This document shows, in pieces, positions 6,448 through 21,544 of a stretch of DNA of 64,000 nucleotides; position 1 is the first letter of the stretch; each line of letters opens with the position of its first letter. The DNA is from Desulfosoma sp. (GTDB lineage Bacteria; Desulfobacterota; Syntrophobacteria; Syntrophobacterales; DSM-9756), in contig JBBFKW010000017.1 in NCBI GenBank assembly GCA_037481835.1, positions 52,459-116,458 on the forward strand, read 5' to 3'. A model generated the notes under the pieces. The model saw nothing but the letters and a program-made list of their open reading frames with translations. It did not search any database and was not told the origin of the DNA. A program made the position numbers and the translations under genes.

Positions 6448-6572
6448 GGATTCTCCCTCCTTGTTCGACCCCAATGATGCTCCTTTCACTCCAAGAAGCA
6501 TTCATGTGGGGTCGGCTCATCGAAAAATGACGCAGATTTTTGTTCGCGGTCAGAGCCTCCCTGCATAGCCGC

Positions 6573-8228
6573 TTAAGCTCCGATCTTTTTTCGGATGTCC
6601 CGGCGCAGTTCTTTTTTGAGAATCTTCCCCACGGGGTTTCGCGGGATGGCCTCCACCACCTCCAACCGTTCGGGCAATTTGTACGTCGCCACCCCCTGTT
6701 CCCTCATGTAGGCCGTGATGCTTTCCATCGTGACCGTCTGGCCGGGTTTGGGCACCACATAAACGCAGGTGCGCTCCCCCAGGTTTTCGTCGGGCATGCC
6801 CACCGCCGCCACATCCTGGACGGCGGGATGCGCCAAAAGGACGTTTTCCACTTCCTGGGCGCTGATGTTGTAGCCGCCTCGGATGATGATGTCCTTGGCC
6901 CGTTCGAAAAACTTCAGGTATCGGTCTCCGGCGATCTGGAAAAGATCCCCCGTGCGGAAGTAGCCTTCCGCATCGAAAGCCTGGGCGTTCAGATCCGGCC
7001 TTTTGAAGTAACCGGGGATCACGTTGGGGCCGCGGTAGAGCAGCTCGCCCACGGCGCCGTCTTCGCTCAGTTCCGACCCGTCGGGACCCACCACCTTTGT
7101 TTGGACGAACCGGGCCATGGGGGTGGACCATTCCACGCCGGGAGCCCCGTATCGGGGCAGGTGGTCGACGCGGATCTTCATGTCCGGCACTTCCCGAACC
7201 CCGGAAACCAAGGCGGTGCCTTCGTTTTGGCCCCAGATGTTCCCAATGTCCACGTTCCAGCGCCTCTTGAATTCTTCCATGGACCACAGGGACGGCGGCG
7301 CGGACCCCACAGTGATGACACGGACGGAACTGAGATCCACCCCTTGGGCGGCCGGATGCTTGAGGATGAGGTTCACCACGGCGGGCACGAGCAAGGTGTA
7401 CTGGATCTGTTCCTGCACCATCTGCTTCAAGAGCAGCTGGGGATCGAAGGGATGGTGCAGGATCACCGTGCCGCCGAAGCGCAGCCACGGCACGTAAACC
7501 GTCCCGACGGAGGCCATATTGACCAAAGGGCCGGCCGTGAGCATGACATCGCCGGGCTCCATGCCGCTGGCCAGAGCCACGGCCGCCTGGCATCGCCAGT
7601 TGTTGTGGCTCAAGGGACAGCCTTTGGGCTGGGCTTCGGTCCCCGACGTCCAACAGAGCGTGAAGATGTCGTCCGCATCCACGCGGATTGCGCTGAGAGC
7701 GGGATCCGGCTTTTCTTGGATCATGCGCCGCACATCTTCGTAGGTGTAGATTTTCTTTAAGGTCGGCACCTTCCGGGCGACCTCTTCGGCCATGGCCCGA
7801 TGGCCGAAGCCGTGAAACGTGTTCACCGTGATCATGGCCTTGGCCTGGGTCAATTCGGCGACGTAGGTGATTTCCTTGGCGCGCCATTGCATGGGCATGG
7901 GGGAAATCACGGCGCCGGCCCGAGCGACGGCGAGGTAGAGCATGGCCAGTTCCCAGCAATTGGGAAGCTGCACGAGCACGATGTCGTCCTTGTCGATGCC
8001 TTCGGCTCGCAATGCTGAAGCCGTCGCTTCCACAGCCCTGTCGAAATCGGCGTAGCGCACCCGTTCCGGAGCCGTCCCGACGAGGGCTTCCTTATTGAGG
8101 GGGTCCACGACGGCGGTGCGTTCCGGTGTCGTGCGGGCGTGCTGCTTGAAGTCGTCCAACAGCGCGCGGGCGCCCCAGCATCCCTTGGTGGTGTATTCCA
8201 AGATCCGTTCGGGAGAAGCGAGAATCAT
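6573..8228 (-). CDS. AMP-forming acyl-CoA synthetase / ANL adenylation enzyme
   Basis: WTSGTEAQPKG P-loop, WGQNEG, YFRTGD, RAKDIIIRGG, PRNPVGKILK. ATG after AAGGAGG. Confidence 0.93.
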   Translation of the reverse strand: MILASPERILEYTTKGCWGARALLDDFKQHARTTPERTAVVDPLNKEALVGTAPERVRYADFDRAVEATASALRAEGIDKDDIVLVQLPNCWELAMLYLAVARAGAVISPMPMQWRAKEITYVAELTQAKAMITVNTFHGFGHRAMAEEVARKVPTLKKIYTYEDVRRMIQEKPDPALSAIRVDADDIFTLCWTSGTEAQPKGCPLSHNNWRCQAAVALASGMEPGDVMLTAGPLVNMASVGTVYVPWLRFGGTVILHHPFDPQLLLKQMVQEQIQYTLLVPAVVNLILKHPAAQGVDLSSVRVITVGSAPPSLWSMEEFKRRWNVDIGNIWGQNEGTALVSGVREVPDMKIRVDHLPRYGAPGVEWSTPMARFVQTKVVGPDGSELSEDGAVGELLYRGPNVIPGYFKRPDLNAQAFDAEGYFRTGDLFQIAGDRYLKFFERAKDIIIRGGYNISAQEVENVLLAHPAVQDVAAVGMPDENLGERTCVYVVPKPGQTVTMESITAYMREQGVATYKLPERLEVVEAIPRNPVGKILKKELRRDIRKKIGA

Positions 8229-8253
8229 GGTGTCCTCCTTGGCGAGGAAACGT

Positions 8254-9450
8254 TTAGAGGCCGAAAATGCCCACACTGCACACGCTGAAGGATGGGATCC
8301 CGCCCAGGTTGTGGGTGAGGCCCAGCTTGGGGTCCTGAATCTGACGCGGCCCGGCCCGATGGAGCAGCTGGGTGTAGACTTCGTAAATCATGCGGATGCC
8401 GGACGCCCCGATGGGATGGCCGAAGCACTTCAGGCCTCCGTCGGACTGGCACGGTATCTTGCCTTCCAAATTGAAGAACCCATCGTTGATGTCCCGGATG
8501 GCCCGGCCTCGCTCGGAAATCTGGAGATCCTCGTAGGTGACGAGTTCCGTGATGGAAAAGCAATCGTGCACCTCCAGAACGCTCAGCTCGTCCCGCGGCC
8601 GCGTGATGCCGGCTTCCGCATAGGCCCGCTTGGCCGCTTCCGTCGTGGTCTTGAGATAGGTCCCGTCCCAGCGGGTCGTCACCATTTCCTCACCCGATGT
8701 GGCGGCGATCTGCAGCGCCTTGACGAACACCGGAGTCTTTCCCAAACCTCGGGCGACGTCCGGCGTCGTCACAATGGCCGCCGCCGCTCCGTCGCTCACG
8801 CCGCAACAGTCGAAAAGCCCCAAGGGCCAGGCGATGATGGGGGCTTTGAGGACCTGTTCCGGGGTGATTTCTTTTCGCAAGTGCGCCTTGGGGTTCATGG
8901 CCCCGCAGCGGTGGCTCTTGGCGGAAATCTTGGCCAAGGCCATCTTGCCTTCTTCTGGGGAAATGCCGTACTTGGCAAAATAGCGCGTGGCCATGAGGGC
9001 GAAGCCGCCCGGGGCCGTAAAATTGGGCAGGATGAACCGATTGAGGGTTCCCATGGCCGTGTCGAAACCCGGAAGACCGCCGTAGCCCGTGTCCTTGAGC
9101 TTTTCCACGCCGAGGGCCAAGGCGATGCGGCAGGCGCCCGAAGCCACCGCATAGCAGGCGCCGCGAAAGGCTTCCGTTCCCGTGGCGCAGAAATTTTCCA
9201 CCCGCGTCACCGGAATGTTGGGAAGTTTCAATGCCTGGGCCAAAGGAATGGCACTCTTGCCGATGTTGACCTCATCGAAACACGTGCCCAACCAGGCCGC
9301 ATCGATCTCTTTCTTTTCAATCCCCGCATCCTGCAAGGCTTCCTGGAAGGCCTCCACCATGAGGTCTTCGGCCCCGTCGTTCCACCGCTCCCCGAACCGG
9401 GTGCACCCCATCCCGATGATCGCCACCTTGTCCTTGATTCCCGTCGCCAT
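8254..9450 (-). CDS. Thiolase, SCP2/SCP-x type (acetyl-CoA acetyltransferase family)
   Basis: VENFCATG catalytic Cys, EVHDCF, GHPIGASG, HNLGG. Confidence 0.93.
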   Translation of the reverse strand: MATGIKDKVAIIGMGCTRFGERWNDGAEDLMVEAFQEALQDAGIEKKEIDAAWLGTCFDEVNIGKSAIPLAQALKLPNIPVTRVENFCATGTEAFRGACYAVASGACRIALALGVEKLKDTGYGGLPGFDTAMGTLNRFILPNFTAPGGFALMATRYFAKYGISPEEGKMALAKISAKSHRCGAMNPKAHLRKEITPEQVLKAPIIAWPLGLFDCCGVSDGAAAAIVTTPDVARGLGKTPVFVKALQIAATSGEEMVTTRWDGTYLKTTTEAAKRAYAEAGITRPRDELSVLEVHDCFSITELVTYEDLQISERGRAIRDINDGFFNLEGKIPCQSDGGLKCFGHPIGASGIRMIYEVYTQLLHRAGPRQIQDPKLGLTHNLGGIPSFSVCSVGIFGL

Positions 9451-9462
9451 GGGCTCCCCTCC

Positions 9463-10923
9463 TTATCGTCCCGCCGATTCCACGGGCACGGCCTTCCAGA
9501 AATACGTGTGCACGCCCCGCTGGGGGTCGTGGTATTTTCGCCGAAGATGCAGCTCCACAGGCTGATCCACCCGAATGGACTCCAACGCGCAGTCGGTGAA
9601 ATCCAGCATCATTCGCCCGCCCCCTTGGAAGTCCACGATGCCGTAGATCTGAGGCGGATCCAGCGAAAAGGCCAGGTTGTCTCCCGTGTAGCTGAAGATC
9701 CGAGCCGGCTTGTCCGAAAAGAGGTAGGGTTCCGTCTCGTCCACGGCTTGGCATTCGCCGACGGCACAGATCCTTTGCGGCGGAAACTGCGGGGTGCCGC
9801 ACCGCCGGCACCGAGTGCCCTCCAACCCCAAGATGGCCCGCCGATACCGCCATTGGACCGATAGAGGCGTTTCCGCTTGAAATTCCCCCCGAAGGCCTGT
9901 TTCCACGGGAATGAGCTCCCGGAAGGCCGCCGCTTTTTCATAGGGGGCGAGCATGGCTTTGCGCGCAGCAAGGGCATCGAAAGTCCAGGCGGGCTTAAAA
10001 GAAGGTGCAGCCTCGGTGACGCGGAAATGGAGGACGTCCACGCCGCTTCCGTACCCCACAACGAGGATGTGGGACCCGGGGGAAGCGGATTCCAGCGCCC
10101 TGCACAGCATGAGGAGCGGGTGAGCGGCGCCGGTGTCGCCCACCTGGGCCGCCAAGGGATCGGCGATCCGATCCGGGGCCAAGCCCAGCCTGGCACCGAT
10201 GACGGCATGCTCCCGTGGGTACGGGCAGGGGTATATCACCGTGGAAAAGGCGTCCAGGGGCATCTGGGCTTGAGCGAGATAGTTCTGGACGGCCTTGGGG
10301 ATGAGGGAGAGATACCCTTCGTCACGCATCCAGCGCTCTTCCCAAGACCGAGGGAGCTTCTTCTCGTTTTCCCGAATGGGGCCCGGAAAATCGGCACTGA
10401 GGGAGTAGGACCCGACGAGCTCGGCAAGAATCCCGTCGCGGCCCATGAGGAGCGCCGCGCCGCCGTCGCCGTACAGGAGTTCTTCGGCGCTTCCCATTTT
10501 GGCCCGTCGGGCATCGGAGGCCACGGCCAGGGCCTGGGTCGAAGCGCCGGAAGACACCTGAGCGGCCGCCGCCAGGACGGCCGATGTCCCCGCCCGCGTC
10601 GATCCCGTGACATCCACGGCCAGAGCGCCTTCGGGAAGACTGAGCGCCTCCCGGAGAATCGCCGCATTCTGGCGTTCCGCGTAGGGAAAGTTGGACGATC
10701 CGGCGAAAAGGGCCGTGCAGGCGGACTCGACCCGGAAACGACAGGCATTTCGACCCGCCGCCGCGGCCAGGGTGATGGCGTCTTCGTCCGCCCCGGCCAC
10801 GGCCTTTTCCCCGCCGGCAAGTCCCCATGCGGCGGGGTTGATCCAGGCCATGGCTTTCGCCACCATTTTCCTTTCCAGCCGATATCGCGGCAGATACGCA
10901 CCATAGGCAACAATGCCGACCAT
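9463..10923 (-). CDS. HMG-CoA synthase-like domain fused to DUF35 (zinc ribbon + OB fold)
   Basis: GIVAYGAYLPRYRL, DEDAITL, GDGGAALL, GDTGAA, GYGSG, then CRRCG...PPQRIC...C and an OB-fold end (YFWKAVP). ATG after AAGGAGG. Confidence 0.88.
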   Translation of the reverse strand: MVGIVAYGAYLPRYRLERKMVAKAMAWINPAAWGLAGGEKAVAGADEDAITLAAAAGRNACRFRVESACTALFAGSSNFPYAERQNAAILREALSLPEGALAVDVTGSTRAGTSAVLAAAAQVSSGASTQALAVASDARRAKMGSAEELLYGDGGAALLMGRDGILAELVGSYSLSADFPGPIRENEKKLPRSWEERWMRDEGYLSLIPKAVQNYLAQAQMPLDAFSTVIYPCPYPREHAVIGARLGLAPDRIADPLAAQVGDTGAAHPLLMLCRALESASPGSHILVVGYGSGVDVLHFRVTEAAPSFKPAWTFDALAARKAMLAPYEKAAAFRELIPVETGLRGEFQAETPLSVQWRYRRAILGLEGTRCRRCGTPQFPPQRICAVGECQAVDETEPYLFSDKPARIFSYTGDNLAFSLDPPQIYGIVDFQGGGRMMLDFTDCALESIRVDQPVELHLRRKYHDPQRGVHTYFWKAVPVESAGR

Positions 10924-10971
10924 GGAAACCTCCTTGCTTTCAGGGGAATGGAACCGAGGGACACGCAACCT

Positions 10972-10991
10972 AACCGAGCGCTCGTTCAGTT
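10972..10991. promoter_or_regulatory. Putative TetR-type operator of the beta-oxidation operon
   Basis: AACCGAGCG-CT-CGTTCAGTT imperfect palindrome. A near copy lies at 30350-30369. TTGACA on the minus strand at 11013-11018. Confidence 0.6.
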
Positions 10992-11079
10992 CCTGACAGA
11001 GCCGACGGCTCATGTCAAGCAAAAGATGAAGCTTGGGCGTGAGGTCGCTCTCGAGTTAAACTGGTTTCGTTGCCTTTGT

Positions 11080-11232
11080 ATATGAAAGTCGCCTTCGAAA
11101 TCTGAAAGGGCAGGACTTTCCTGGTTCGTTGTCTCGCCGGATATGGATCCGGGTTGGGGTTCGCTGTGCTCACCCCAACCTACGAGTTTATTCAACGAGA
11201 CTTTCATCCTTCGTCGTCTCGCCCCGCGCGAT
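11080..11232. repeat. Dispersed intergenic repeat, copies 2 and 3, flanking a GTAG-type REP hairpin
   Basis: Matches 5510-5585. The segment 11153-11183 reads GTAGGTTGGGGTGAGCACAGCGAACCCCAAC on the minus strand (GTAG head plus GTTGGGGT/ACCCCAAC stem). Confidence 0.75.
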
Positions 11233-11544
11233 GGGGGGTATTGCTGGCTCGGACCGAGACGGCGGTCCTAGTGCCCGCCGGTTCGCGGCGAACGATGGGG
11301 AAGGCCTCTCATGGGCGAAGGAGCAATGGGGGGTGCAGTCTTCGGGGGCGCTGAGCTCACCTCAGCGGCCCTCTCGATCCATCGCGCTGAGAATTGGACG
11401 GGGCCGACGCAGCCGTGATTTTCGCGGCCGGGGATAAAGCCCGCCCCTGCCGTGAAAGGCTTCCCCCATCTCCCGAGCGCGACTCATCGCCATGATGGAT
11501 GGGGCAGTGCGGTTTTCATTGGAAAGGGCTTGAAGGACGAATCC

Positions 11545-12072
11545 ATGAGCATGAAAACTCTCAAGAGCCCCGGTCCGCCGGATCCGGCCCGGCACGTGCT
11601 CCAGGCCTGTCGGCTCTATGAAGAAATCGGAGACGACATCCTGGCGGACACCGAGCTCGCCCGGGCTCTGAAACGATACCGATCCGCTATCCAGGAAACG
11701 CGGGCCGCTTTTGCCCGCGCGGGCGTTTTTGACGCCTGCAGCGCTTGCGCCGCCCATGTCTTCGGGGGATGTTGCTTTCCCGACATGGAATGGAACTACA
11801 CGGTGGTCCATCTCCTCATCAACCGGCTGCTGGGCTGCAAACTCCCCACTCGGCACGCCTATGCCGACCAATGTCTCTTTCTGGGCGACAAGGGCTGCCT
11901 GCTTACGGCCAAAAACCATTTCTGCCTCAATTACTTTTGCCAGGACATCCAGAGAAACCTGGGCCCCACCACCCTGAAGGCCCTTCTCCAGATCGTCGGC
12001 CGGGAAATCATGGCGGGCTGGGAAGTGGAACTGCTCCTCCTCCACCGTTACCGGTCCGAAATCTTTGTCTAG
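11545..12072 (+). CDS. Hypothetical Cys-cluster protein (CxxC..CC, YkgJ-like)
   Basis: CSAC....GGCC...CLFLGDKGCLL......CLNYFC pattern. ATG after GAAGGA. Confidence 0.7.
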   Translation: MSMKTLKSPGPPDPARHVLQACRLYEEIGDDILADTELARALKRYRSAIQETRAAFARAGVFDACSACAAHVFGGCCFPDMEWNYTVVHLLINRLLGCKLPTRHAYADQCLFLGDKGCLLTAKNHFCLNYFCQDIQRNLGPTTLKALLQIVGREIMAGWEVELLLLHRYRSEIFV

Positions 12073-12099
12073 TGTGCCTGGACAACTATTTCCCGCCCC

Positions 12100-12714
12100 A
12101 AGGAAAAGTATCGCCTCGTCGTTCGATTCTATGAAATCCACGTCGAAGAAAAAGACGGCACGGCGGTAAGGCTTTCCTGGGAGCTCAAGGATGAGCAGAG
12201 GCTTCAGAAGCGATTTTCCGGTCGTTACCGGATTCGATCTTCACGAACGGATCTTTCGGACAAGGAGCTTTGGGATCTCTACAACATGCTGACCCAGCTG
12301 GAGGACTCCTTCCGCAGCCTCAAGCACGAGCTTTCCTTGCGCCCGGTCTATCATCGTGTGTCACGGCGGATCCAAGGGCACCTTTTCATCACCGTCCTCG
12401 CCTACCACCTGCTGTGCGTCATCCAGAGAAAGCTTCACCAACGCGGAATTCGCCACCACTGGACCACGTTGCGAACGCACCTGAGCGGGCAGGTCCGCGT
12501 GACGACCACCACGGTCAACGACAAGGGTCAGGTCATCCATATCCGACACACTTCGGAGCCGGAGCCGGTTCACGTGGGTATTTACAAGGCCCTCGAACTG
12601 CCGGTTCGGCCGTTGAGAAGGCTCACGAAAATCGAGTGAAAAATCTGTAGTGTAGAATTTGAAATCACATCTCAGCAAAATCAAAATCTTACGCACAAAA
12701 GTGACAAACTTGGG
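12100..12714 (+). mobile_element. IS1634-family insertion sequence remnant (3' part of transposase plus probable right end)
   Basis: Frame 12100-12639 reads KEKY...GRYRIRSSRTDLSDKELWDLYNMLTQLEDSFRSLKHELSLRPVYH...GHLFITVLAYHLL. An AT-rich tail ends GTGACAAACTTGGG at 12714. No 5' half and no left end were found. Confidence 0.85.
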
Positions 12715-12715
12715 T

Positions 12716-12844
12716 TACGACTTTTCCCGCGGCGAGACCCTCATTCGGGTGGGATACGACGCGGCTTCTTCCTTTTTTGCCCGGCTGGATGTGATCGGCC
12801 CGGGCGTTTACGGATCTCCCCATTCCCATGGAAAAGAACCATGA
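12716..12844 (+). pseudogene. Possible C-terminal remnant of a patatin-like phospholipase gene
   Basis: Directly after the IS end the frame reads YDFSRGETLIRVGYDAA...stop, resembling the patatin/RssA tail (compare SDFHLFDQSLQAGHEA in 62986-63939). Confidence 0.4.
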
Positions 12845-12985
12845 TTACACAAAGAGCATTTGCATCGCAGTACATATCGTTGAAATGTGCGCTCGTGACG
12901 GGTTGGATCGTTCCCCCAGGATAACGCCGAAGGGAGCCCCCTGATCGAGTCAATTCGTGCACGGAACGGAAGCGAGGAGTTCACC

Positions 12986-15900
12986 ATGTCCTTTGATCCC
13001 CGAGAGTGGGTGCGGATGGACTGGGAAGCCGCACCCATCTACGTTCGACCGGATCCCCCCTGCTGGTTCGTCCCCAACGGGATGGGAGACCGCCTTCTTC
13101 AAGAAGCCTTGACAAAGCCAGACATTCCCCTGACCCAAGACGCGGCCCGCTTCTGGCGGCGCCTTCCCGAGTCGTCCCCGTCCCGCTATGCGGGTCGAGC
13201 GGAGATACTCAAACCGCATCGTCTGAAGGAATTCTGGATCCATCTCACCGACCGGTGCAACCTGGCGTGCCGGCATTGTCTTTTCGCCTCCTCGCCCTCC
13301 CGGGCCCGGGAGCTGCCGGCGGACCGGGTGCTGGAAGCCGCCCGCCAGGCGCATGAACTGGGATGCCGCCTTTTTGCCCTCACCGGCGGCGAGCCCTTCG
13401 TTCACCCCCACATCCACCGCATCCTCCAAGGCCTGCTGGCCCTTCCCGACGCCCACGTGGCGGTGCTCACCAACGGCCTGGCCGCCCGGTCCGTCCTGGA
13501 AAAGCTCCCGTGGGATCCCGAACGGATCCATCTGCAGGTGAGTCTGGACGGGCTGGAAGAAAGCCACGACGCCCTGCGCGGCAAGGGAACGTTTGCGAAA
13601 ACCTTGAGGGAACTCCGGGCGCTCTCCCGCATGGGAATTCCCTTCACCCTTTCCATGTGCCCCACCCGCTCCAACTTATCCGATGTGCCGCACATGGCGG
13701 ATGCGGCACGGGACGCGGGCGCGTCCAACATCCACTTCATGTGGTACTTCGTGCGGGGGCGTGCCGTTTCAAAGGAATTCGTGCCTCCGGATGAACTCTT
13801 GGACGCGGTGCGCTGCGCCGTGGAGCGCGCCGAAGATTCGGGTGTCTCGGTGGACAACGTTCAGGCGCTGGCTACCCAGGTCTTTTCCCCCCCGGGAACC
13901 CGCTACGACGGCGGCGGCGCGGCCTGGGAATCCCTGGCCCTGGGACCCGACGGAAACCTCTATCCGTCCGCGGCCCTGGTGGACGTCCCCGAACTGGCCA
14001 TGCCTTGGCCCCGGGGCCTGGAAAGGGCCTGGAAGGACAGCCCCGTCTTCGAGCGCATCCGGCAGGAAACGGCGGCGCGGCTCGATCATCCGCTTCGCTT
14101 CCTCCTGGGAGGGGGCGATCCCGATCACAGCTACCTGGCGGCAGGCCGGTTCGTGGGAGCCGATCCCTACTTGGAGCTCCATCAGAAACTGGCCCTCTGG
14201 CTCATCGCCCGTCGTGCCCCCCGGTCCGTCGTCACCAGCCGGCCGGCCCTTCGCCTCAAGATGGGGGACATCCTTCAGAGCTGCGGAAGCGGAGAGCACG
14301 GCGTCTCCTTCGTCCATTCCAATTGCCTGCTCGCTCTTGCCTCCCCGTCGAGCCTTTCCGTCGTTCGGGACTTCTATTCCGACGCCGCGGCCCGTCCCAA
14401 GTTGGACATCCTCAATCCGGTGACCTATCCCGAGGCATGGACGGCTCACATCCCTGAAGAATACCGGTTTCGCGGCTACGGGTGCGGCAATCCCGTGGTG
14501 GATGCGGCTCTTCAAGAGGGCGAGACCGTGGTGGACCTGGGCTGCGGAAGCGGTGTGGAATGCTTCATGGCGGCCAAGCAGGTGGGACCGGACGGTCGCG
14601 TGATCGGGATCGACATGCTGGAAGCCATGTTGAAACGCGCCCGGGCGGGAGCCCGCGCCACGGCCGAGCGGCTGGGCTACGACAACATGACCTTCCTCCA
14701 TTCCCTCCTGGAAAGCCTTCCCCTGGACGATCACACCGCGGACGTGGTGCTTTCCAACTGCGTGCTCAACCTTTCCAGCGACAAGCGCCGCGCCTTCCGG
14801 GAGATCCACCGCATCCTCCGCCCCGGCGGCCGCCTGGCGGTTTCCGACGTGGTCTGCGACACCGACCCGGATCCGGCCATCCGAAACGATCCCGTGCTCC
14901 ACGGGGAATGCATCGGCGGCGCGCTCACCCAGCGGGACCTGGTGGGGATCCTGGAAGAATCCGGCTTCCGGGCGGTTCGCTTTCTCAAGAGGTTTCCCTA
15001 CCGCACGGTTCGCGGCCACCGGTTTTACAGCCTCACCTTCGAAGCTCGGAAAGAAACCGACGCAGACGCCGTCCCTGTCCTCTATCCGGGACCCTTTGCG
15101 GCCGTCCAAACCTTCGGGGGAACCGTGCTCACTCCCGGACCGGTGCACCGCATCCCGCAATGGGAAGCCCAGATCCTGGAAGACCAGCTCTGGATCCTGG
15201 ACGATGGGGGAGCCGTGACGAACCGGGAACGCGAAAGCTGCTGCGCCTGCGCCGCGCCGGAAGACCAGCCGGCCGCGGATCCCGCTTCGGCCCCTTGGCA
15301 CGTTCCGGGCCCAGCCGGCCGAAAGACCGGCCAAAGCATTCCGCTTCGGCGCCGTTCCGGCTGCATGGTCTGCGGCGAGCCGCTTTCCTACGAATCTTCG
15401 GAAACCCTGGAAACGTGCATCTACTGCGAAGGCCGCTTCCTTTCGTCGGCCCGCTGCCTCAAGGGCCATTTCGTCTGCGACGCGTGCCATTCCCGGGACG
15501 CTCTCGCGGTGATCGAGCACCTCTGCCTTTCTTCCACGGAAACCGACCTCATCGCCCTCATGGACAAAATCCGCCGCCATCCGGCCATGCCGGTCCACGG
15601 GCCCGAACACCACGCCCTGGTGCCCGCCGTGGTGGTAACCGCGTACCGCAATGCCGGCGGACCGGTGGACGAGGAGGCCATCCGTTCCGCCCTTCGCCGC
15701 GGTTCCCGCGTTCCCGGAGGATCCTGCGGGTTCATGGGCTGCTGCGGAGCGGCCGTGGGTGTGGGGATCGCCTTTTCGATCCTCCTGGAAGCCAATCCGG
15801 TCAAGGGACCGGAACGGCGCCTGGCCCAGCAGGCGACCCAGCAGGCCCTGGCGGACATCGCCTCCCTGGACGCCGCCCGATGTTGCCAGAGGGATTCCTG

Positions 15901-16072
15901 GATCGCTCTCAAGAAGGCGGCCGAACTTTCCGCCCAAATCCTGGATCGCCCCCTCCACGCCAACCACACCCTCAAGTGCCGACAGCAGGCGAAAAACCGC
16001 GAATGCTCGGGCGCCCGATGCCCGGTGCTCAGAAGCCTCAACGGACGCGCCGGCCAGGGGCTTTCGGCATGA
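12986..16072 (+). CDS. Radical SAM / ArsM-like SAM methyltransferase / Cys-rich (DUF5714-like) multidomain protein
   Basis: [19 protein letters not shown]; then [43 protein letters not shown]; then [46 protein letters not shown]. Confidence 0.9.
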
Positions 16073-16078
16073 GAGGAG

Positions 16079-16113
16079 GGATGAGTGATGGGGGATGGGT
16101 GATGAGTGAGAGG
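16079..16113. repeat. Heptamer tandem microrepeat
   Basis: GGATGAG TGATGGG GGATGGG TGATGAG TGAGAGG. Confidence 0.6.
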
Positions 16114-16272
16114 GAGCGCCGCGGGGTGCGATTTTCTTTGAGTGGCGCCATGCGGTTGTGACATTGCGGGCCATCTCCGTTGCGGTTTGCGCCGCTCCCA
16201 CAAGGGACAGAACCGAAGGTTGTTTTCACCACATAAGATGTCGCGCTCCCTCGTTCTTGCTCACGATACTTT

Positions 16273-16300
16273 CTTTGCGCCTTTGCGTCTTTGCGCGAGA
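16273..16300. repeat. Octamer tandem microrepeat
   Basis: CTTTGCGC CTTTGCGT CTTTGCGC GAGA. Confidence 0.65.
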
Positions 16301-16358
16301 CCTTTTTGGCCTCCCGCCAAGCCGCGACTTTCTTTCACGTTCATCGAGGACGGAGAAG

Positions 16359-17909
16359 ATGAGAGACTCCGCACAAAGGTCTACGGTGTTGGAGCCATGG
16401 GATGAGGCGAACCGGGAGCTGGCTTCTCTCATCCGCCCCGCGCACTGGAGGAACCCCGCGCCCGCGCCCCGCTACAACCTGGTGGTCATCGGGGCGGGGA
16501 CCGCGGGGCTGGTGACCGCGGCCGGGGCCGCGGGACTGGGAGCCAAGGTGGCCCTGGTGGAAAGGCACCTTCTCGGCGGAGACTGCCTCAATGTGGGGTG
16601 CGTGCCTTCCAAGGCGCTTCTGGCGGCCTCCCGCGCCGCCGCCGCGGTCCGGGATGCTCACCGCTTCGGGATTCATGTGCCGGAAGGGGTCCGGGTGGAT
16701 TTTCCAAGGGTCATGGAGCGCATGCGCCGCCTGCGGGCATCCATCGCCCCCAACGATTCCGCCCGGCGCCTCACGGAACTGGGCGTTGACGTCTTTTTCG
16801 GAAACGCCCGCTTCATGGATTCGGAAACGGTGGATGTGGACGGAACACGGCTCCGGTTTCAGAAGGCCGTGATCGCCACCGGAGCCCGGGCCGCCGCTCC
16901 GGCCATCCCCGGCCTGGACCGGGTGCCCTACCTCACCAACGAGACGCTCTTTTCGCTCACCGAACTTCCCCGGCGGTTCGGCATCATCGGAGCCGGCCCC
17001 ATCGGCTGCGAGATGTCCCAAGCCTTCGCCCGCTTCGGGTCCAAGGTTTTTCTGGTCGAAGCCATGCACGGGATTCTTCCCCGGGAGGACCCGGACGCAT
17101 CCGCCATCGTCTGGAAGGCCATGGAGACCGACGGTGTGGAACTCCTTTGCTGCGGGCAGGACCTGGTTCTGGAGCCGGGCCAAGACGGCTCCGCGGTCAT
17201 GCAGCTCCATTCCCACGGGCGCACGACCCGCGTGGAGGTGGACCGGGTTCTGGTGGCGGTGGGGAGGGCTCCCAATCTGGAAGATTTGGACCTGGATCGC
17301 GTGGGGGTGGCCGCCACGCCCAAAGGCGTCGTCGTGGACGATCACCTTCGGACCACCAACCCCAGGATCTATGCGGCCGGCGACGTCTGTTCCCCCTATC
17401 AGTTCACCCACGCGGCCGACTTCATGGCGCGCCTCGTCATCCAAAACGCCCTCTTTTGGGGCCGGGCCAAGGCGAGCGCCCTCACCATCCCCTGGTGCAC
17501 CTACACGGACCCGGAAATCGCCCATGTGGGCCTCTATGAAAGGGACGCCCGGGCCCGCGGCTGGGAGCTTCAGACCATCACCCTGCCCCTTTCCCATGTG
17601 GACCGGGCCGTCCTGGAAGGCCGGGCCGAAGGGTTGGTTCGGGTTCATGTTCGAAAGGGAACCGACCGGATCGTGGGGGCCACCATCGTGGCACCCAACG
17701 CCGGAGATATGATCGGGGAGCTGAGTCTGGCCATGACCCACCGGATCGGCCTTCGGGGCCTGGCCGCCGCCATCCACCCCTACCCCACCGTGGGAGAAGC
17801 CCTGCGCAAGGTGGGCGATCTTTACAACCGATCCCGGCTCACGCCGCGGATGAAAAAGTTGGTCGCCCAAATCCTGGCCTGGCGTCGAGGAAAGCGGCAC
17901 TGGAGCTGA
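16359..17909 (+). CDS. FAD-dependent pyridine nucleotide-disulfide oxidoreductase (LpdA/MerA-like, not true MerA)
   Basis: VIGAGTAG, GGDCLNVGCVPSK redox disulfide, IGAGPIGCE, IYAAGD, IHPYPT. No C-terminal CC pair and no N-terminal HMA domain. Confidence 0.92.
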   Translation: MRDSAQRSTVLEPWDEANRELASLIRPAHWRNPAPAPRYNLVVIGAGTAGLVTAAGAAGLGAKVALVERHLLGGDCLNVGCVPSKALLAASRAAAAVRDAHRFGIHVPEGVRVDFPRVMERMRRLRASIAPNDSARRLTELGVDVFFGNARFMDSETVDVDGTRLRFQKAVIATGARAAAPAIPGLDRVPYLTNETLFSLTELPRRFGIIGAGPIGCEMSQAFARFGSKVFLVEAMHGILPREDPDASAIVWKAMETDGVELLCCGQDLVLEPGQDGSAVMQLHSHGRTTRVEVDRVLVAVGRAPNLEDLDLDRVGVAATPKGVVVDDHLRTTNPRIYAAGDVCSPYQFTHAADFMARLVIQNALFWGRAKASALTIPWCTYTDPEIAHVGLYERDARARGWELQTITLPLSHVDRAVLEGRAEGLVRVHVRKGTDRIVGATIVAPNAGDMIGELSLAMTHRIGLRGLAAAIHPYPTVGEALRKVGDLYNRSRLTPRMKKLVAQILAWRRGKRHWS

Positions 17910-17933
17910 AGGATTTCCAATCCGCCGGGCGGA

Positions 17934-18644
17934 TCAGCTCCGAGACGAAGGTTCCACACTGACCAGGAGCGTCCGCCCCTGGACGGCGATCCGACCGCTT
18001 TCGCGGAGCTTTCCCATGGCCCGCGTGATGCTCACCCGGTGTGCCCCCGCGAGAAAACTTAACTCCTCGTGTGTGAGAGGAAAATGGATGGCGTAGCCCG
18101 TGGTCGTGGGCTTTCCGTGCTCCTTGGCCACGGCAACCAAAATCCTGTAGAGACGGTCTTCCAGGTTCGAAAGGGACAGACTCTCCGCCCGATCCGTCAG
18201 GAGATGGATCCTCTCACTCAAGTTTCGAATGACTTGAAGCCCGATGTTGGGGCGCTCACGCACCAAGGCCTCGAAGCGCTCCCGGGTAAACCCGCAGATG
18301 AGGGTGCGCTCCATGCACACGGCGCTCACCGGGTAGTCCGTTTCTTCGGAAAGCATCTGTTCGCCGAGAAAATCGCCCGGTTTGCGCATGTCGAGCGTGA
18401 TTTCGTGGCCGTCTTCCTGGACCTTGGAGAGCTTCACCCGCCCGGCCTTGATCAAAAACATGCGGTGCGCCGGGTCTCCCTGGTGGAAAATCATCTCCCG
18501 CGCTTGGTAAATCCGACGCTCCGCCGCCGAAACCAGCGCCAAGGTATCCTCCGGATCCAGGTTCCTGAAGAGCCACAGGTTCCCCAGGCACTCCGGACTG
18601 ACGGCCACCTCCTTGCCGAGCCATTCTTCGCACAGGCATCCCAT
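17934..18644 (-). CDS. Crp/Fnr family transcriptional regulator with N-terminal Cys residues
   Basis: cNMP-binding fold (IFHQGDPA, GRVKLSK, GDFLGE), HTH LTHEELSFLAGAHRVSITRAM, N-terminus MGCLCE...EC. Confidence 0.92.
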   Translation of the reverse strand: MGCLCEEWLGKEVAVSPECLGNLWLFRNLDPEDTLALVSAAERRIYQAREMIFHQGDPAHRMFLIKAGRVKLSKVQEDGHEITLDMRKPGDFLGEQMLSEETDYPVSAVCMERTLICGFTRERFEALVRERPNIGLQVIRNLSERIHLLTDRAESLSLSNLEDRLYRILVAVAKEHGKPTTTGYAIHFPLTHEELSFLAGAHRVSITRAMGKLRESGRIAVQGRTLLVSVEPSSRS

Positions 18645-18664
18645 GGCGGGCTCTCCAGAACGGC

Positions 18665-19219
18665 TTATCCGATGAATACCTGAAGACGGGCGCAAAAGTC
18701 CCGGACATCCACCGGTTCAATCACCAGCGGCACCTGAACCAGATCGAAAAAGTGGAGGATTTCTTCGTCGCTGAGGGGATTGAGTCCGGCATCCAGGACG
18801 AGAATTCGGTCGTAGCGCCCCAACTGGATTCTGGCGTCCACCTGGTCCCAGCCCATGACGGCCATGATTTGCGGCCAGACACGCACCCAGGCCGGCGTCA
18901 TGAGCATGGTGCGATCCTTTTCTATCTCTCGGGCTTGCGGACCGGCCAACCATTCCAGGCAGTTGCGAAAAGGGGCGGTTTCAAAGCCGCCCTCCTCGGC
19001 AATCCTTCGAAGCTCGGGATGACACCCCGCTCCGAAGACGAGGTATCGCGGCCCACTCTCTGGGGAGAGATCGTCGGACTTGCAGTGAAGGTCCTTTTCC
19101 AGTCGGTCCAGATCCGCATGGAGCGCCGCATCAACCCAGAGGATCTTAACATCCGTTCTTTCCCCGATGCAGGCCTGCAATTCATCTTCGAAAATCCGAC
19201 ACGCAATGATGGTCTTCAC
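18665..19219 (-). CDS. DUF1638-like protein
   Basis: IIACRIFEDEL, AALH, FGAGCHP, NCLEWL, MTPAW, YDRILVLD. GTG start just after the upstream stop. Confidence 0.7.
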   Translation of the reverse strand: MKTIIACRIFEDELQACIGERTDVKILWVDAALHADLDRLEKDLHCKSDDLSPESGPRYLVFGAGCHPELRRIAEEGGFETAPFRNCLEWLAGPQAREIEKDRTMLMTPAWVRVWPQIMAVMGWDQVDARIQLGRYDRILVLDAGLNPLSDEEILHFFDLVQVPLVIEPVDVRDFCARLQVFIG

Positions 19220-19227
19220 GGCCCGCC

Positions 19228-19884
19228 TCACATCATCCGCTGGGATCGCAACCGCTCCCGAAGCTCCCCGCCCACTTCCCCGGCCCGACGCCACACCTCT
19301 TCTTGATCCTCAACAGAATAGAACTTGTCCGGCGTCACGCGCGCACCTTCCCCGAAGATCCACGGGACGGCGCTCATGGGACAGGTTTCTCCGTATCCGC
19401 ATACCATGCATTCGGGGTTGCCGACAATCTTCAAGGTCTCCAGCACCATCATACCTTCCAAACGCAGGGCATGGATCATCTGCGCAGAAGCGTCCTCCAG
19501 GCCGGGTGCTCCACGCCCGATGCCCGTGGTCACGATCACGGCCAATTTGCCTCTGTTCAGGCCGTTTTGATGCCTCAAGGAAAAGAGCCTCTCCAGGAAG
19601 GCCTTCGTAAAGCCGTCCACCGCCCCGTAAGGGGCATAGCCTCCCACGACCAGGGCGGACGCCTTTCGGACCTTTTCCGCCAGCGGCGGGAAATCGTCGG
19701 AGACTTTGCAAACGTTGTCCTTCTTGCAACCAAGGCAAGCGATACAGGGTCGAACGTTGAGACGACTCAGTTTGATGAACTCGTAGGCCAATCCGCTGGA
19801 CTCCAAGACTTTCAACACCAAGCGGTCCGTGTTGCTGTTCTTGATCGGGCTTCCTGAAATTCCAACAATCGGGACATGGGTCAT
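19228..19884 (-). CDS. Iron-sulfur flavoprotein / NADPH-dependent FMN reductase family
   Basis: GISGSPIKNSNT FMN loop, CIACLGCKKDNVC...DD, additional CMVCGYGETC motif. Confidence 0.88.
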   Translation of the reverse strand: MTHVPIVGISGSPIKNSNTDRLVLKVLESSGLAYEFIKLSRLNVRPCIACLGCKKDNVCKVSDDFPPLAEKVRKASALVVGGYAPYGAVDGFTKAFLERLFSLRHQNGLNRGKLAVIVTTGIGRGAPGLEDASAQMIHALRLEGMMVLETLKIVGNPECMVCGYGETCPMSAVPWIFGEGARVTPDKFYSVEDQEEVWRRAGEVGGELRERLRSQRMM

Positions 19885-19955
19885 ATCGCTTTCTCCCGCA
19901 CGTTCTTTTACTGAGTACGTCGAGGGGGGCGCCGCGGCGAGCCCCCCGGAACCGG

Positions 19956-20090
19956 TCACTTCTTTTCGTCCTTTTCCTTGTTCTTCTCTTCAGCCAGCAC
20001 CACTTTCCTGCCGCATAGGTCGCATCGACCGTCTTCCGTGATGCACGGCTGACGCGGCGCCTCACCTCCGCAGATTCCGCACTTCGGCAT
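19956..20090 (-). CDS. 44-aa Cys-rich microprotein (absent from the ORF track)
   Basis: Translated by hand: MPKCGICGGEAPRQPCITEDGRCDLCGRKVVLAEEKNKEKDEKK. RBS AAAGGAGGTGA lies 6 nt before ATG. GC hairpin at 19924-19947 follows the stop. Confidence 0.75.
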   Translation of the reverse strand: MPKCGICGGEAPRQPCITEDGRCDLCGRKVVLAEEKNKEKDEKK

Positions 20091-20251
20091 GGCAAATCAC
20101 CTCCTTTCTCACGTTCGTTCCGGCATGCCGTGATATAGGTTCTAGACGGAAGACACGAGCTTTTCCGTAGCAAGGGCTACACACAATGCATTTGGGAGGA
20201 ATCCTTAAAGGAGGGCTTGGATGATTCTTCTCTAGTCGGGGCTATGACGAA

Positions 20252-20317
20252 CGGGCATAAGACACACCCTTATAAGAAGGCAGTGACGTCTTGGGTAGGG
20301 CGGGGTTTGTCCGCCCG
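20252..20317. repeat. Degenerate GTAG-type REP doublet
   Basis: GTAGGGCGGGGTTTGTCCGCCCG at 20295-20317 with a weak inverted partner at 20252-20274. Related sequences at 11425-11450 and 50823-50848. Confidence 0.5.
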
Positions 20318-20384
20318 CTCAGCGTGCGGCAATAGGGAATCCAATAAAAGAATCCAGCCGTTTGGCTTAAAGATAGTCCAACTG

Positions 20385-20579
20385 CTACTCTTCCCAGTGG
20401 ATGCATTCGGCCGGACAGGTCGCGATCGCCTCCTCGGTGCAGTCCTCATCCCCTCCCTCAGCAAGGATCACGTGGGCCTTTTCGGCCTCCTCGTCGAATC
20501 CGAACACCTCCGGACACAGTTCCACACAGCTTTCGCAACCGATGCATTCTTCCGTTTTAATGTATACCTTCTTGGTCAT
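20385..20579 (-). CDS. fdx: Single-cluster ferredoxin
   Basis: 64 aa, acidic, CIGCESCVELCP...CPAECI. RBS GGAGG. Confidence 0.95.
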   Translation of the reverse strand: MTKKVYIKTEECIGCESCVELCPEVFGFDEEAEKAHVILAEGGDEDCTEEAIATCPAECIHWEE

Positions 20580-20664
20580 GGTTTCCTCCAAACTTGAATC
20601 AACGCTGAATTTGGTTAGAGTTTGGTATTTTCAATATCTAACACTGCACATTTTTCAGGAATAT

Positions 20665-21225
20665 CTATCCCAAGCCGAAGTAATGACGACCTAATTCATG
20701 CAAAAACTCGTGGAACTCTTCGTGTTTTCCAGCCCCAACGCGTTCATTTTCGATGCGTTCGAATGCCTCCAGGAGCCTGCCGTCTTCGGCTGCATCCAGG
20801 TTCGCCTCCGCCATCACAAAAAGGACGGTGTTTTCCTTCGCTATATGCTGTGTCAAAAGCTCCACATAGCTGCCCATGCGGCTCTTGATGATGTCTGCTG
20901 CGGATTTGTCATCCGATGGATAGTTTTTTACGGCGTCTCGGAGTTCGGAAACGATCCTGCGCCCTTCTTCGTGCTCGGCAAGCAAGACCCCTATCGGGCC
21001 TCCATCCCTTGGAATGCCGCTTGCCTCCAAGGCCGGGAACAGAAATTCCTCTTCTTTTCCATGGTGGCACTTATCCACAAATATCGACAGAAACTCCATG
21101 ATGCCGTCAAGGTGCCGGACATCCACCTGTTCACCGTGAGAGAGTTTTTTTGATACCGCCTGCAGGACCTGCAGCATCACCATTATCCCTTCGTGTTCTT
21201 TCCTGAGGTCTTCGGTGGCTTTCAT
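20665..21225 (-). CDS. Hemerythrin HHE-domain protein
   Basis: LRKEH, DKCHHGKEEEFLFP, LAEHEEGR, QHIAKENTVLF. Confidence 0.92.
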   Translation of the reverse strand: MKATEDLRKEHEGIMVMLQVLQAVSKKLSHGEQVDVRHLDGIMEFLSIFVDKCHHGKEEEFLFPALEASGIPRDGGPIGVLLAEHEEGRRIVSELRDAVKNYPSDDKSAADIIKSRMGSYVELLTQHIAKENTVLFVMAEANLDAAEDGRLLEAFERIENERVGAGKHEEFHEFLHELGRHYFGLG

Positions 21226-21299
21226 GCGTGCCTCCTTTCGTTCAAGGATTCTTGACTCTCAGAGTCCGGCCTTTTCGGTCGACCGACATGAGGCCCTCC

Positions 21300-21470
21300 T
21301 TACCATTTTCGAAGATGCACACTGGGCGCCGCATCTTTCAGCCAATAATCCGCCTGCAATCGGTCCTTGCTCATAGCCCGAGGCCATACGCGATCCACCA
21401 GGATCCGCGTTCCGTCGTCGTCGCCCAAAGGCTCAAAGACACGTTTCGTACGTATGTTCAACGGCACCAC
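21300..21470 (-). pseudogene. Truncated DUF488/YeaO-family gene
   Basis: IRTKRVFEP...[17 protein letters not shown]...[14 protein letters not shown] then TAA. The C-terminal half is absent. Confidence 0.8.
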
Positions 21471-21544
21471 CCTTCGCCGTTTCAGCACGGGAAGGAAATC
21501 ACAGGGGCTCTGGGGGGCATGAAAGCCGCTTCCAGATGCTTGCC

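Follow-up and report, generated by a model that had tools for sequence, protein, structure and literature searches.

Gene and domain organization of the fusion protein

We analysed a stretch of 64,000 nucleotides (nt) from Desulfosoma sp. (GenBank assembly GCA_037481835.1, contig JBBFKW010000017.1, positions 52,459 to 116,458 of the forward strand), here called the window, and focused on one gene at 12986..16072 (+), which encodes a fusion of a radical S-adenosylmethionine (SAM) domain, an ArsM-like methyltransferase and a DUF5714 module in a single protein of 1028 amino acids (aa) (P0001). The uninterrupted open reading frame (ORF) described in the initial annotation, which had been made from the sequence alone, was reproduced on translation with an ATG start and no internal stop. 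A Shine-Dalgarno sequence (GAGGAG, 12974..12979 (+), read directly) lies 7 nt before the ATG. The DNA around the gene has a G + C content of 60–66%, and long spurious frames occur here, including an antisense 810-aa ORF (13769..16201) that overlaps the gene. Family matches and full-length homologues are confined to the plus frame and not the antisense ORF, and the fusion ORF is a genuine gene, far beyond chance.

Every motif quoted in the initial annotation was located in the translation: CNLACRHC (residues 91–98), GYGCGNP (497–503), SNCVLNL (590–596), GECIGGA (640–646), CCAC (752–755) and the CxxC pairs (793/796 and 811/814), together with HGPEHH (871–876), CGFMGCCG (914–921) and RCC (965–967). 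Above the gathering thresholds, Pfam reported Radical_SAM (PF04055, residues 86–239, 80.5 bits, cut-off 29.5), class I methyltransferase models, of which Methyltransf_31 covers residues 510–658 (105.9 bits), and DUF5714 (PF18978, residues 843–1013, 209.1 bits against 26.2, model positions 1–171 of 173). The last match bears out the DUF5714-like C-terminal domain that the initial annotation had named. An AlphaFold2 (AF2) model of the whole protein built with 138 homologues had a mean predicted local distance difference test (pLDDT) value of 90.2 and a predicted template modelling (pTM) score of 0.74, and pLDDT fell below 50 only at residues 751–784 and in the last seven residues. Conservation counts below refer to the alignment of these 138 homologues to the fusion protein.

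The N-terminal ~60 residues (12986..13165 (+)) are modelled as three strands with helices, and this secondary structure and Foldseek comparison suggest a resemblance to the PqqD-like recognition element (RRE) of ribosomally synthesized and post-translationally modified peptides (RiPPs). Pfam gave no PqqD match on the window protein; a homologue in another genome (G016) matched Pfam PqqD at residues 23–64. The radical SAM core follows at residues ~82–300 (13229..13885 (+), PF04055), with the CxxxCxxC motif at 13256-13279. Its three cysteines (C91, C95 and C98) are Cys in 138/138 homologues, and G135, E136 and P137 of the GGEP motif (residues 134–137) are invariant.

In the SPASM/twitch subfamily of radical SAM enzymes, cysteines of a C-terminal subdomain ligate one or two auxiliary [4Fe-4S] clusters. 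Profile alignments place a SPASM-like subdomain lacking these cysteines at residues ~301–420 of the fusion (13886..14245 (+)), where “YPSAA” replaces the Cys motif; alignments to the PqqE, mycofactocin and AlbA profiles extend to residue ~360. The auxiliary cysteines have been lost family-wide, with no column of residues 240–431 holding Cys in more than 14/138 homologues. The best NCBIfam scores for residues 1–470 all lie far below cut-off (AlbA, 88.5 bits against 850; Rv1681 family, 84.6; ScmF, 82.5; PqqE, 66), and the other high-scoring families, among the best 25 of 62 matched, are ScmE/F, a nif11-class maturase, SbtM and StsB. The ArsS model (TIGR04167) reached 58.4 bits (cut-off 300) over residues 75–217, corresponding to model positions 2–147 of 303. 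After the ArsM entries, Foldseek returned SkfB, CteB, SuiB, PqqE, anSME and BlsE; the CteB and SuiB alignments span ~460–470 columns, and CteB (5wgg) matched residues 1–470 with a target-normalised TM-score (TMt) of 0.67 over 471 columns. By the model, residues 1–470 are predicted to fold like a SPASM maturase that carries an RRE. A bridge segment (14246..14350 (+)) then leads to the methyltransferase; it has lower model confidence (pLDDT 66–83) and contains C433 (14282-14284) and C447 (14324-14326), each Cys in 138/138 homologues.

The ArsM-like class I methyltransferase, including the ArsM C-terminal domain, occupies residues ~456–750 (14351..15235 (+)), as judged from PRK11873, NF040538, CmArsM and Foldseek. 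Its three conserved cysteines lie in GYGCGNP (C500, 14474-14494), SNCVLNL (C592, 14753-14773) and GECIGGA (C642, 14903-14923). The initial annotation had equated these with the arsenic-binding cysteines of ArsM, and the phmmer alignment to CmArsM (PDB 4fr0/4kw7) agrees: C500, C592 and C642 correspond to C72, C174 and C224, and all are Cys in 138/138 homologues. Among solved structures, CmArsM was matched by phmmer with E 4e-40 (140 bits), while the best other methyltransferase scored 46.6 bits. The 11 best Foldseek chains were all ArsM/AS3MT (E 2.6e-21 to 1.5e-18; at E 2.6e-21, 33% identity over ~293 columns). The best NCBIfam family was arsenite methyltransferase PRK11873 (NF008823), with 216.3 bits against a cut-off of 263 over model positions 41–235 of 272. 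The arsinothricin ArsM model NF040538 (162.2 bits against 500) aligned as far as residue 754, across the ArsM C-terminal domain, and the cyanobacterial arsenosugar ArsM model NF038099 reached 113 bits against 400.

The most N-terminal ArsM cysteine, which the initial annotation had found to be missing, is indeed absent: the position equivalent to Cys44, assigned from spacing and sequence context rather than structural alignment, is T480 in the window protein. The same column is Cys in 92/138 homologues and non-Cys in 46/138. According to a review of ArsM studies (PMC6138428), all four ArsM cysteines are needed for methylation of As(III), Cys44 and Cys72 are dispensable for trivalent monomethylated arsenic, MAs(III), and the disulfides formed by ArsM cysteines are reduced by thioredoxin.

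A quick maximum-likelihood tree was made from 30 fusion methyltransferase domains, the 33 closest stand-alone relatives and two further methyltransferases encoded in the genome of the window; it was built without experimentally characterised ArsM anchors. Nine of the 33 relatives pass the PRK11873 cut-off, 14 score 210–249 bits, and 10 are long forms that match NF040538 best. The fusion domains and one 312-aa protein formed a single clade (Shimodaira–Hasegawa-like approximate likelihood ratio test, SH-aLRT, 100; stem 1.12). On this comparison, the methyltransferase domain appears to be a distinct branch of the ArsM superfamily, outside its named subfamilies.

A disordered linker (residues 751–784, 15236..15337 (+), pLDDT <50), starting with CCAC (15239-15250), joins the methyltransferase to the last module; its C753 and C755 are Cys in 120/138 and 135/138 homologues, respectively. 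The DUF5714 module (PF18978) covers residues 785–1028 (15338..16069 (+)). It comprises two zinc-ribbon-like hairpins (C793/C796/C811/C814 and C824/H828/C831/C834/H835) and then a helical domain with HGPEHH (15596-15613), C914/C920 (15725-15748), RCC at residues 965–967 (15878-15886) and C998/C1007/C1012. Fifteen of its cysteines are invariant or nearly so, and RCC is invariant. Modelled alone with 55 sequences (pLDDT 92.4, pTM 0.87), the module again consisted of two hairpins followed by a helical domain. Foldseek against the PDB found no match for it at E <= 0.001 (best 0.28), and the ESM Atlas gave no usable match. With VIA-align wide, the highest Z was 5.8, a value within the noise range; the weak neighbours at Z 5.8–4.3, also noise, were split-Soret cytochrome, CyuA and L-serine dehydratase, all Fe-S proteins.

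A search with DUF5714 alone among 1.84 billion representatives gave 1084 matches at E <= 0.001, and architectures were read from 27 of them chosen by length. These comprised the tri-domain form, methyltransferase plus DUF5714, TrsS plus DUF5714, DUF5714 plus an ArsC-like low-molecular-weight phosphatase, single cases with alanine-racemase-like, GGDEF or kinase domains, and many stand-alone proteins of ~240 aa. The stand-alone proteins retain the same Cys set as the fusion. The TrsS–DUF5714 fusion (P0171) scored 652 bits to NF045646 (cut-off 490) and shows DUF5714 partnered independently with a second radical SAM family. The protein with the ArsC-like domain (P0202) scored 82 bits to thioredoxin-type arsenate reductase (cut-off 215). 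As a side observation, the DUF5714–TrsS proteins (P0171 and P0137) carry an HMPTM-type zinc ribbon, and TrsS, a radical SAM (seleno)protein, is related to the tetraether lipid synthase Tes.

Distribution of the family

A word-indexed protein search scored 8000 candidates, of which 1105 had E <= 0.001. The best 120 of the 1105 were 943–1109 aa long, and all had radical SAM, methyltransferase and DUF5714 Pfam matches. The closest named homologue among the matches listed was from Desulfacinum infernum (93% identical). Source names of the homologues were only “DUF5714 domain-containing protein”, “radical SAM” and “methyltransferase”, with no functional name. When each GTDB species was represented by a single genome, a relative of the fusion was encoded in 447 of the 549 stretches that matched the pattern. 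The 80 loci kept were mostly from Thermodesulfobacteriota, joined by Chlorobium, Planctomycetota, Acidobacteriota, Eisenbacteria and metagenome-assembled genomes (MAGs) of Anaerolineales and Victivallales. In-frame stops flagged within some homologues fall at natural ends of the genes and were not counted as selenocysteine codons.

Haft and Tolstoy 2025, which reportedly defines MbdU, TrsS and ArsM selenoprotein fusions, may discuss DUF5714 fusions; in the literature searched, we found no description of this architecture, of “DUF5714” or of its fusion with an arsenite methyltransferase, in line with the initial annotation, which knew of no characterised enzyme of this kind. The three-domain enzyme is widespread in anaerobic bacteria and not yet characterised.

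Co-occurrence with TIGR04282 and near-exclusion with ArsS

Co-occurrence was examined in 301 Thermodesulfobacteriota genomes from 199 genera, with the fusion called at E <= 1e-100. The fusion was present in 25 genomes (21/199 genera), the TIGR04282 transferase in 158 and ArsS in 110. TIGR04282 occurred in 25/25 fusion genomes and in 133/276 others, and the single genome of the same genus that has no fusion likewise has no TIGR04282. ArsS occurred in only 3/25 fusion genomes as against 102/133 of the other TIGR04282 genomes, so that the 158 TIGR04282 genomes hold ArsS in 105, the fusion in 25, both in three and neither in 31. Among 141 Planctomycetota genomes, relatives were found in seven, one of them tri-domain and six radical SAM plus methyltransferase only (38–41% identity). 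Five of these seven genomes have TIGR04282, adjacent to the relative in two and ~2 kb away in a third, and ArsS was found in 0/7 compared with 37/57 other TIGR04282 genomes.

Canonical ArsM above cut-off was found in 32/110 ArsS genomes, 4/25 fusion genomes and 50/169 others of the Thermodesulfobacteriota. Since ArsS genomes show no enrichment of canonical ArsM, we abandoned the argument that the fusion stands in for an obligatory ArsS and ArsM pair. The cyanobacterial arsenosugar ArsM model NF038099 matched in 0/301 genomes and in no control, and is therefore uninformative here. About 40 ArsS matches in Thermodesulfobacteriota hold exactly one in-frame TGA, a pattern consistent with ArsS being a selenoprotein in this phylum. 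Several ArsM-like matches below cut-off carry one TGA too.

The genome from which the window comes is 99.4% complete. It has no ArsS, the best TIGR04167 match being the fusion itself (59.6 bits against 300), and no canonical ArsM, the best match again being the fusion (219 bits against 263) and the next scoring 94.7 bits. It has a single DUF5714. On another contig, one ORF of 444 aa (G000:C3:81577-82854 (-), L089:9536-10870), found by profile search, fuses TIGR04282 (197.6 bits, cut-off 134) with a TIGR04283-like glycosyltransferase family 2 (GT2) domain (174.5 bits, cut-off 182). On either side of it lie Fe-alcohol dehydrogenases, a sigma-54 two-component pair and DUF6785/DUF6784. Open frames of 430–700 aa around the TIGR04282 matches in many genomes suggest that the TIGR04282–TIGR04283 fusion is frequent elsewhere.

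Gene neighborhoods of the fusion

Neighborhoods were compared for 80 of the 447 loci and the window by clustering ORFs of at least 90 aa, annotating representatives and counting members within 3 kb of the fusion; given the clustering thresholds, the counts are lower bounds. The TIGR04282 “arsenosugar biosynthesis glycosyltransferase” (214.8 bits, cut-off 134) lies within this distance in 15/80 loci, typically following the fusion in the same orientation after a median gap of 14 nt. A DedA/VTT membrane protein does so in 13/80, typically directly upstream, and one or the other is present in 25/80. An FAD disulfide oxidoreductase was counted in 5/80 loci and additionally in the window, FMN_red in 7/80 and DUF3047 in 6/80.

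Split forms of the fusion occur in the same setting. In one genome (G194), a one-strand operon reads VTT, TIGR04282/DUF2064, GT2, a radical SAM/methyltransferase protein (761 aa) and a separate DUF5714 protein (334 aa). Another (G296) has the same split, adjoining a heavy-metal P-type ATPase, and the PqqD-bearing homologue in G016 is a PqqD–radical SAM–methyltransferase protein without DUF5714. ArsS loci of the same phylum have the orders VTT–ArsS–GT2–TIGR04282–fatty-acid hydroxylase, VTT–TIGR04282 ... ArsS, and GT2–ArsS–TIGR04282; beside ArsS in these loci there is no ArsM-like or DUF5714 gene, save an ArsM 8 kb away in one. The fusion or its split form occupies the place of ArsS in a shared cassette in about a third of the loci.

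Further variants were seen at single loci. The fatty-acid hydroxylase family gene that ends one VTT–ArsS–GT2–TIGR04282 cassette (L119, G119:C85, 7629-8432) hints at a lipid-linked product. A third type of radical SAM gene stands beside TIGR04282/GT2 at 2011-3567 of L116 (G020:C86) and 3234-4976 of L117 (G099:C14), encoding proteins of 518 and 580 aa; these score 75–105 bits to the radical SAM domain of the fusion, and both genomes are without ArsS or fusion. In a Desulfobulbaceae MAG (L016, 1253-6856), the order VTT/DedA, FAD disulfide oxidoreductase, fusion unites two recurrent upstream neighbors.

The locus in Desulfosoma sp.

Downstream of the fusion gene in the window, an FAD-dependent pyridine-nucleotide disulfide oxidoreductase of 516 aa (P0391) with a GGDCLNVGC redox motif is encoded at 16359..17909 (+) (NF004991, 782.5 bits against 620). 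Assignment of this flavoprotein as MerA was rejected (TIGR02053, 388 against 454, and no C-terminal Cys pair). Such an oxidoreductase is found near the fusion in eight other loci from three phyla (Thermodesulfobacteriota, with Desulfacinum/Desulfosoma and Desulfobulbaceae records, an Anaerolineales MAG and Planctomycetaceae MAGs). Between the two genes, 44 nt past the stop codon of the fusion, a consensus scan found a terminator-like site, a small GC hairpin with a T-rich run after it (16116..16129 (+)); the scan gave 11 sites, with 8.1 expected. The leader 5′ of the fusion gene is 335 nt long and AT-richer, with one sigma-70-like site at 12659-12687, and an Rfam scan of 11000-18800 gave no match, hence no known riboswitch in this leader.

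Small ORFs upstream, at 11129-11437, 11452-12072 (or antisense 11362-12141) and 12270-12650, have no Pfam or NCBIfam match, and none of the small ORFs in 11129-12985 clusters with any ORF of the 80 homologous loci. Beyond them, 1528-11022 (-) holds a fatty-acid/beta-oxidation-like cluster unrelated to the fusion gene, with a TetR regulator, two acyl-CoA dehydrogenases, a MaoC-type double hydratase, a short-chain dehydrogenase/reductase, an AMP-forming ligase, a thiolase-like protein and an HMG-CoA-synthase-like protein with ChsH2 zinc-ribbon/OB domains. A redox- or oxygen-stress-looking group lies downstream at 17934-22822 (-) and comprises a Crp/Fnr regulator, DUF1638, an FMN_red flavoprotein, hemerythrin and a flavodiiron-like protein (ODP metallo-beta-lactamase plus flavodoxin). 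The FMN_red flavoprotein has no ArsH or other NCBIfam match, and FMN_red genes recur near the fusion in nine other loci. An SPFH/Band-7 protein with several C-terminal zinc ribbons is encoded at 23145-24299 (+).

Proposed function

The domains, the invariant residues, the co-occurrence and the synteny are all accounted for most simply by a non-orthologous replacement of ArsS. We consider it somewhat probable that the fusion is a bifunctional enzyme forming C–As bonds, on arsenic or a related metalloid, and that it replaces ArsS in an arsenosugar-type gene set consisting of the DedA/VTT membrane protein, the GT2 transferase TIGR04283 and the CofC-like transferase TIGR04282. On the simplest account, a minority of anaerobes would perform the ArsS step of this TIGR04282/TIGR04283/DedA pathway with another radical SAM domain, one joined in the same chain to an ArsM-type methyltransferase and a DUF5714 module or encoded beside them.

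To our knowledge, only ArsS and ArsL make non-methyl C–As bonds. ArsS adds the 5′-deoxyadenosyl group to trivalent dimethylated arsenic, DMAs(III), to give 5′-deoxy-5′-dimethylarsinoyl-adenosine (DDMAA), according to PMC13598754. ArsL, as described in bioRxiv 10.1101/2024.02.01.577332, adds an aminocarboxypropyl group to As(III) held on its non-cluster RCCLKC motif, and ArsM methylates afterwards. In the fusion, trivalent arsenic would be held on Cys thiolates, for which the RCC pair with neighboring DUF5714 cysteines, the CxC linker and C433/C447 are candidates. The [4Fe-4S]/SAM site at C91/C95/C98 would make a carbon radical from SAM, most simply 5′-deoxyadenosyl as in ArsS, and addition of this radical to As(III) would form the C–As bond. 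Through C500, C592 and C642, the ArsM-like domain would move methyl groups of SAM to the same arsenic. The product, presumably a dimethylarsinoyl-adenosine-like compound, would be handed to the separately encoded transferases. The neighboring NAD(P)H/FAD disulfide reductase may re-reduce the Cys disulfides of ArsM-type catalysis, a role that fits because such disulfides need re-reduction.

Some elements of the initial annotation are affected by these results. The proposal of a single-chain pathway is not borne out, as the fusion appears to work with separate transferases. Its order of steps, methylation and then radical alkylation, is not indicated by the data either: the 46/138 homologues, including the window protein, without the Cys44 equivalent lack a residue that CmArsM needs only for the first methylation of inorganic As(III), so that alkylation first and methylation second (the ArsL/ArsM order) would be at least as likely as the reverse ArsM-then-ArsS order. 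The radical link between carbon and arsenic gained support from TIGR04282 in every fusion genome, the near-exclusion with ArsS and, in a subset of loci, the place in the ArsS cassette. The radical SAM domain is not ArsS-like, and no ArsL model was among the best 25 of the 62 families that it matched.

A thiolate-bound arsenic carrier role for DUF5714 is plausible because of the invariant RCC, the ArsC-like fusion, the flexible CxC linker and the “CU” motif with which MbdU, a selenoprotein relative of DUF5714, is tabulated in PMC13188914. Extending this, we offer as a tentative suggestion, and one that we hold to be doubtful, that DUF5714 is an unrecognised arsenic- or metalloid-thiolate carrier feeding radical SAM chemistry in the ArsM fusion, the TrsS fusions and hundreds of stand-alone proteins, and that the enzyme makes an organoarsenical in strict anaerobes independently of ArsS, alkylating As(III) before methylation, with a product possibly other than dimethylarsinoyl-adenosine.

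Comparison with known systems

The fusion resembles ArsS (TIGR04167) in combining a radical SAM domain with TIGR04282, GT2/TIGR04283 and DedA/VTT partners at the same cassette position, and the two are nearly mutually exclusive among TIGR04282-bearing genomes. It differs in not being an orthologue (58–60 bits against 300, confined to the generic N-terminal 147 model positions), in its SPASM-maturase-type radical SAM domain with an RRE-like N-terminus, and in the added ArsM-like and DUF5714 domains; Pfam reported no DUF3641. With ArsM/AS3MT (CmArsM 4fr0, CrArsM 5evj and human AS3MT 8xt7), the methyltransferase shares the fold, Cys72/174/224 and the ArsM C-terminal domain. It departs from them in its scores below cut-off, its long-stemmed clade, the loss of the Cys44 equivalent in a third of the alignment (46/138), the extra C433/C447 and its embedding in a larger protein.

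Like ArsL with ArsM in arsinothricin biosynthesis, the fusion pairs a radical SAM domain with an ArsM-type methyltransferase, which would act on one arsenic, and both have an RCC motif (that of ArsL within RCCLKC, as given in bioRxiv 10.1101/2024.02.01.577332). However, ArsL and ArsM are separate proteins, the RCC of ArsL lies in a short C-terminal tail whereas that of the fusion lies inside the 240-residue DUF5714, no ArsL model was among the best 25 of the 62 families matched by the radical SAM domain, and the partner genes of the fusion are those of ArsS. MbdU (“metal-binding double selenoprotein”, NF045648) resembles the C-terminal 244 residues, which align to its model positions 4–267 of 468, but the fusion is not MbdU: it scores 122–126 bits against 600, has no selenocysteine (the ORF contains no in-frame TGA) and lacks the C-terminal half of MbdU. 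The SPASM/twitch maturases AlbA, SkfB, CteB, SuiB, PqqE and anSME provide the best family and structural matches to residues 1–470, yet all of these scores fall far short of cut-off, the whole family has lost the auxiliary Fe-S cysteines, and no RiPP gene recurs around the fusion among ORFs of at least 90 aa.

Evidence against the proposal and alternative explanations

Several observations weigh against a C–As bond-forming replacement of ArsS. The radical SAM domain is, by its profile scores, apparently no nearer to ArsS than to many other families, its best scores going to sactipeptide/SPASM maturases, and its modelled fold with an RRE-like N-terminus would be typical of peptide-modifying enzymes. 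The methyltransferase clade sits in an unresolved split with three ArsM-like groups and is nested in no named one, and the Cys and His residues of DUF5714 could bind zinc or Fe-S instead of arsenic. TIGR04282 and VTT are both missing from the 3 kb around the gene in 55/80 loci and in the window. No arsenic gene adjoins the fusion in the window: the TIGR04282/04283 ORF is on another contig and Acr3 on yet another. The survey of homologue neighborhoods suggested by the initial annotation yielded ArsS-cassette genes in the 25/80 loci, with no adjacent ars gene in the window. A 287-nt gap containing the hairpin separates the fusion gene from the FAD reductase. TIGR04282 is common anyway (158/301), making its presence in 25/25 fusion genomes less striking; three genomes hold both ArsS and the fusion, 31/158 and 20/62 TIGR04282 genomes hold neither, and 2/7 Planctomycetota genomes with relatives are without TIGR04282. 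The Fisher p values (1e-9 for the exclusion in Thermodesulfobacteriota, and a second value of 0.008) are overstated, as related genomes are not independent. ArsS is not visibly coupled to canonical ArsM in Thermodesulfobacteriota. Finally, “arsenosugar” in the names of TIGR04282/04283 is an NCBI label for a hypothetical equivalog and not a tested function.

One alternative is an enzyme of the same architecture and cassette that acts on selenium, tellurium, antimony or a thiol or persulfide, the ArsS/TIGR04282/TIGR04283/DedA set then making a non-arsenic product. The initial assignment of the methyltransferase as arsenite-methyltransferase-like holds at the level of the ArsM superfamily, with the cysteines conserved; it does not extend to a named ArsM group, as the domain fails every curated ArsM cut-off and forms its own clade, which leaves room for another substrate. 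So do the lack of an ars gene beside the fusion in the window, the in-frame TGA often found in ArsS of Thermodesulfobacteriota, and the occurrence of methyltransferase and DUF5714 relatives as selenoproteins (MbdU, ArsM/AhpD, ArsM/DUF2284 and UXPK-star models; PMC13188914). On the other hand, the positions of the CmArsM arsenic-binding cysteines are invariant in the fusion family, the nearest solved and named relatives of the methyltransferase are arsenic methyltransferases, one DUF5714 is fused to an ArsC-like domain, and ArsS, the only experimentally tied member of the cassette, acts on arsenic (PMC13598754). We rate a different substrate as rather unlikely.

An enzyme of metallocofactor or protein maturation, with DUF5714 as a zinc or Fe-S scaffold and no arsenic involved, seems to us improbable. 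Such a scaffold would suit the 15 invariant or near-invariant cysteines in clustered, zinc-ribbon-like motifs, the pairing of DUF5714 with two unrelated radical SAM families and the Fe-S proteins among its weak structural neighbors. The Z values of these neighbors (5.8–4.3) nevertheless lie inside the stated noise range of the tool, no candidate client metalloenzyme recurs in the neighborhoods of the 80 loci, and the ArsM Cys triad, the ArsC-like fusion and both the tie to the ArsS cassette and the exclusion with ArsS would be left unexplained. A RiPP or peptide maturase, with a Cys peptide that is recruited by the RRE-like N-terminus, cross-linked or epimerised by the radical SAM domain and then methylated by the methyltransferase, is suggested by the best radical SAM scores (AlbA, ScmE/F, nif11-class maturase, SbtM and StsB), by the Foldseek matches to SkfB, CteB, SuiB, PqqE and anSME, and by the PqqD match in one homologue. 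We find it highly improbable: the SPASM auxiliary-cluster cysteines are absent family-wide, the methyltransferase carries the ArsM-specific Cys triad, and the ORFs of at least 90 aa beside the fusion include no recurrent transporter, protease or other RiPP gene, although precursor peptides below that length would have escaped this comparison.

Significance

What is new here is the fusion of radical SAM, ArsM-type methyltransferase and DUF5714 domains; organoarsenical biosynthesis by a radical SAM enzyme plus ArsM is of a known kind. If the fusion does form C–As bonds in place of ArsS, it would be a third, structurally unrelated radical SAM domain for this chemistry, fused to its own ArsM-type methyltransferase, and would imply convergent evolution of C–As chemistry. 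If, further, DUF5714 is the arsenic carrier, a second, convergent origin of C–As bond formation in an arsenosugar- or arsenolipid-type pathway would follow. The protein would offer one polypeptide for studying how a substrate passes between polar (SN2) and radical SAM chemistry, as well as a first functional handle on DUF5714/MbdU, and would back the assignment of the TIGR04282/TIGR04283/DedA cassette to arsenic outside cyanobacteria. The family is frequent in sulfate- and metal-reducing anaerobes (~8% of the sampled Thermodesulfobacteriota genomes), which control the speciation of arsenic in sediments, in paddy soils and in hot springs. Because it fails both curated models, gene surveys based on arsM and arsS would miss it.

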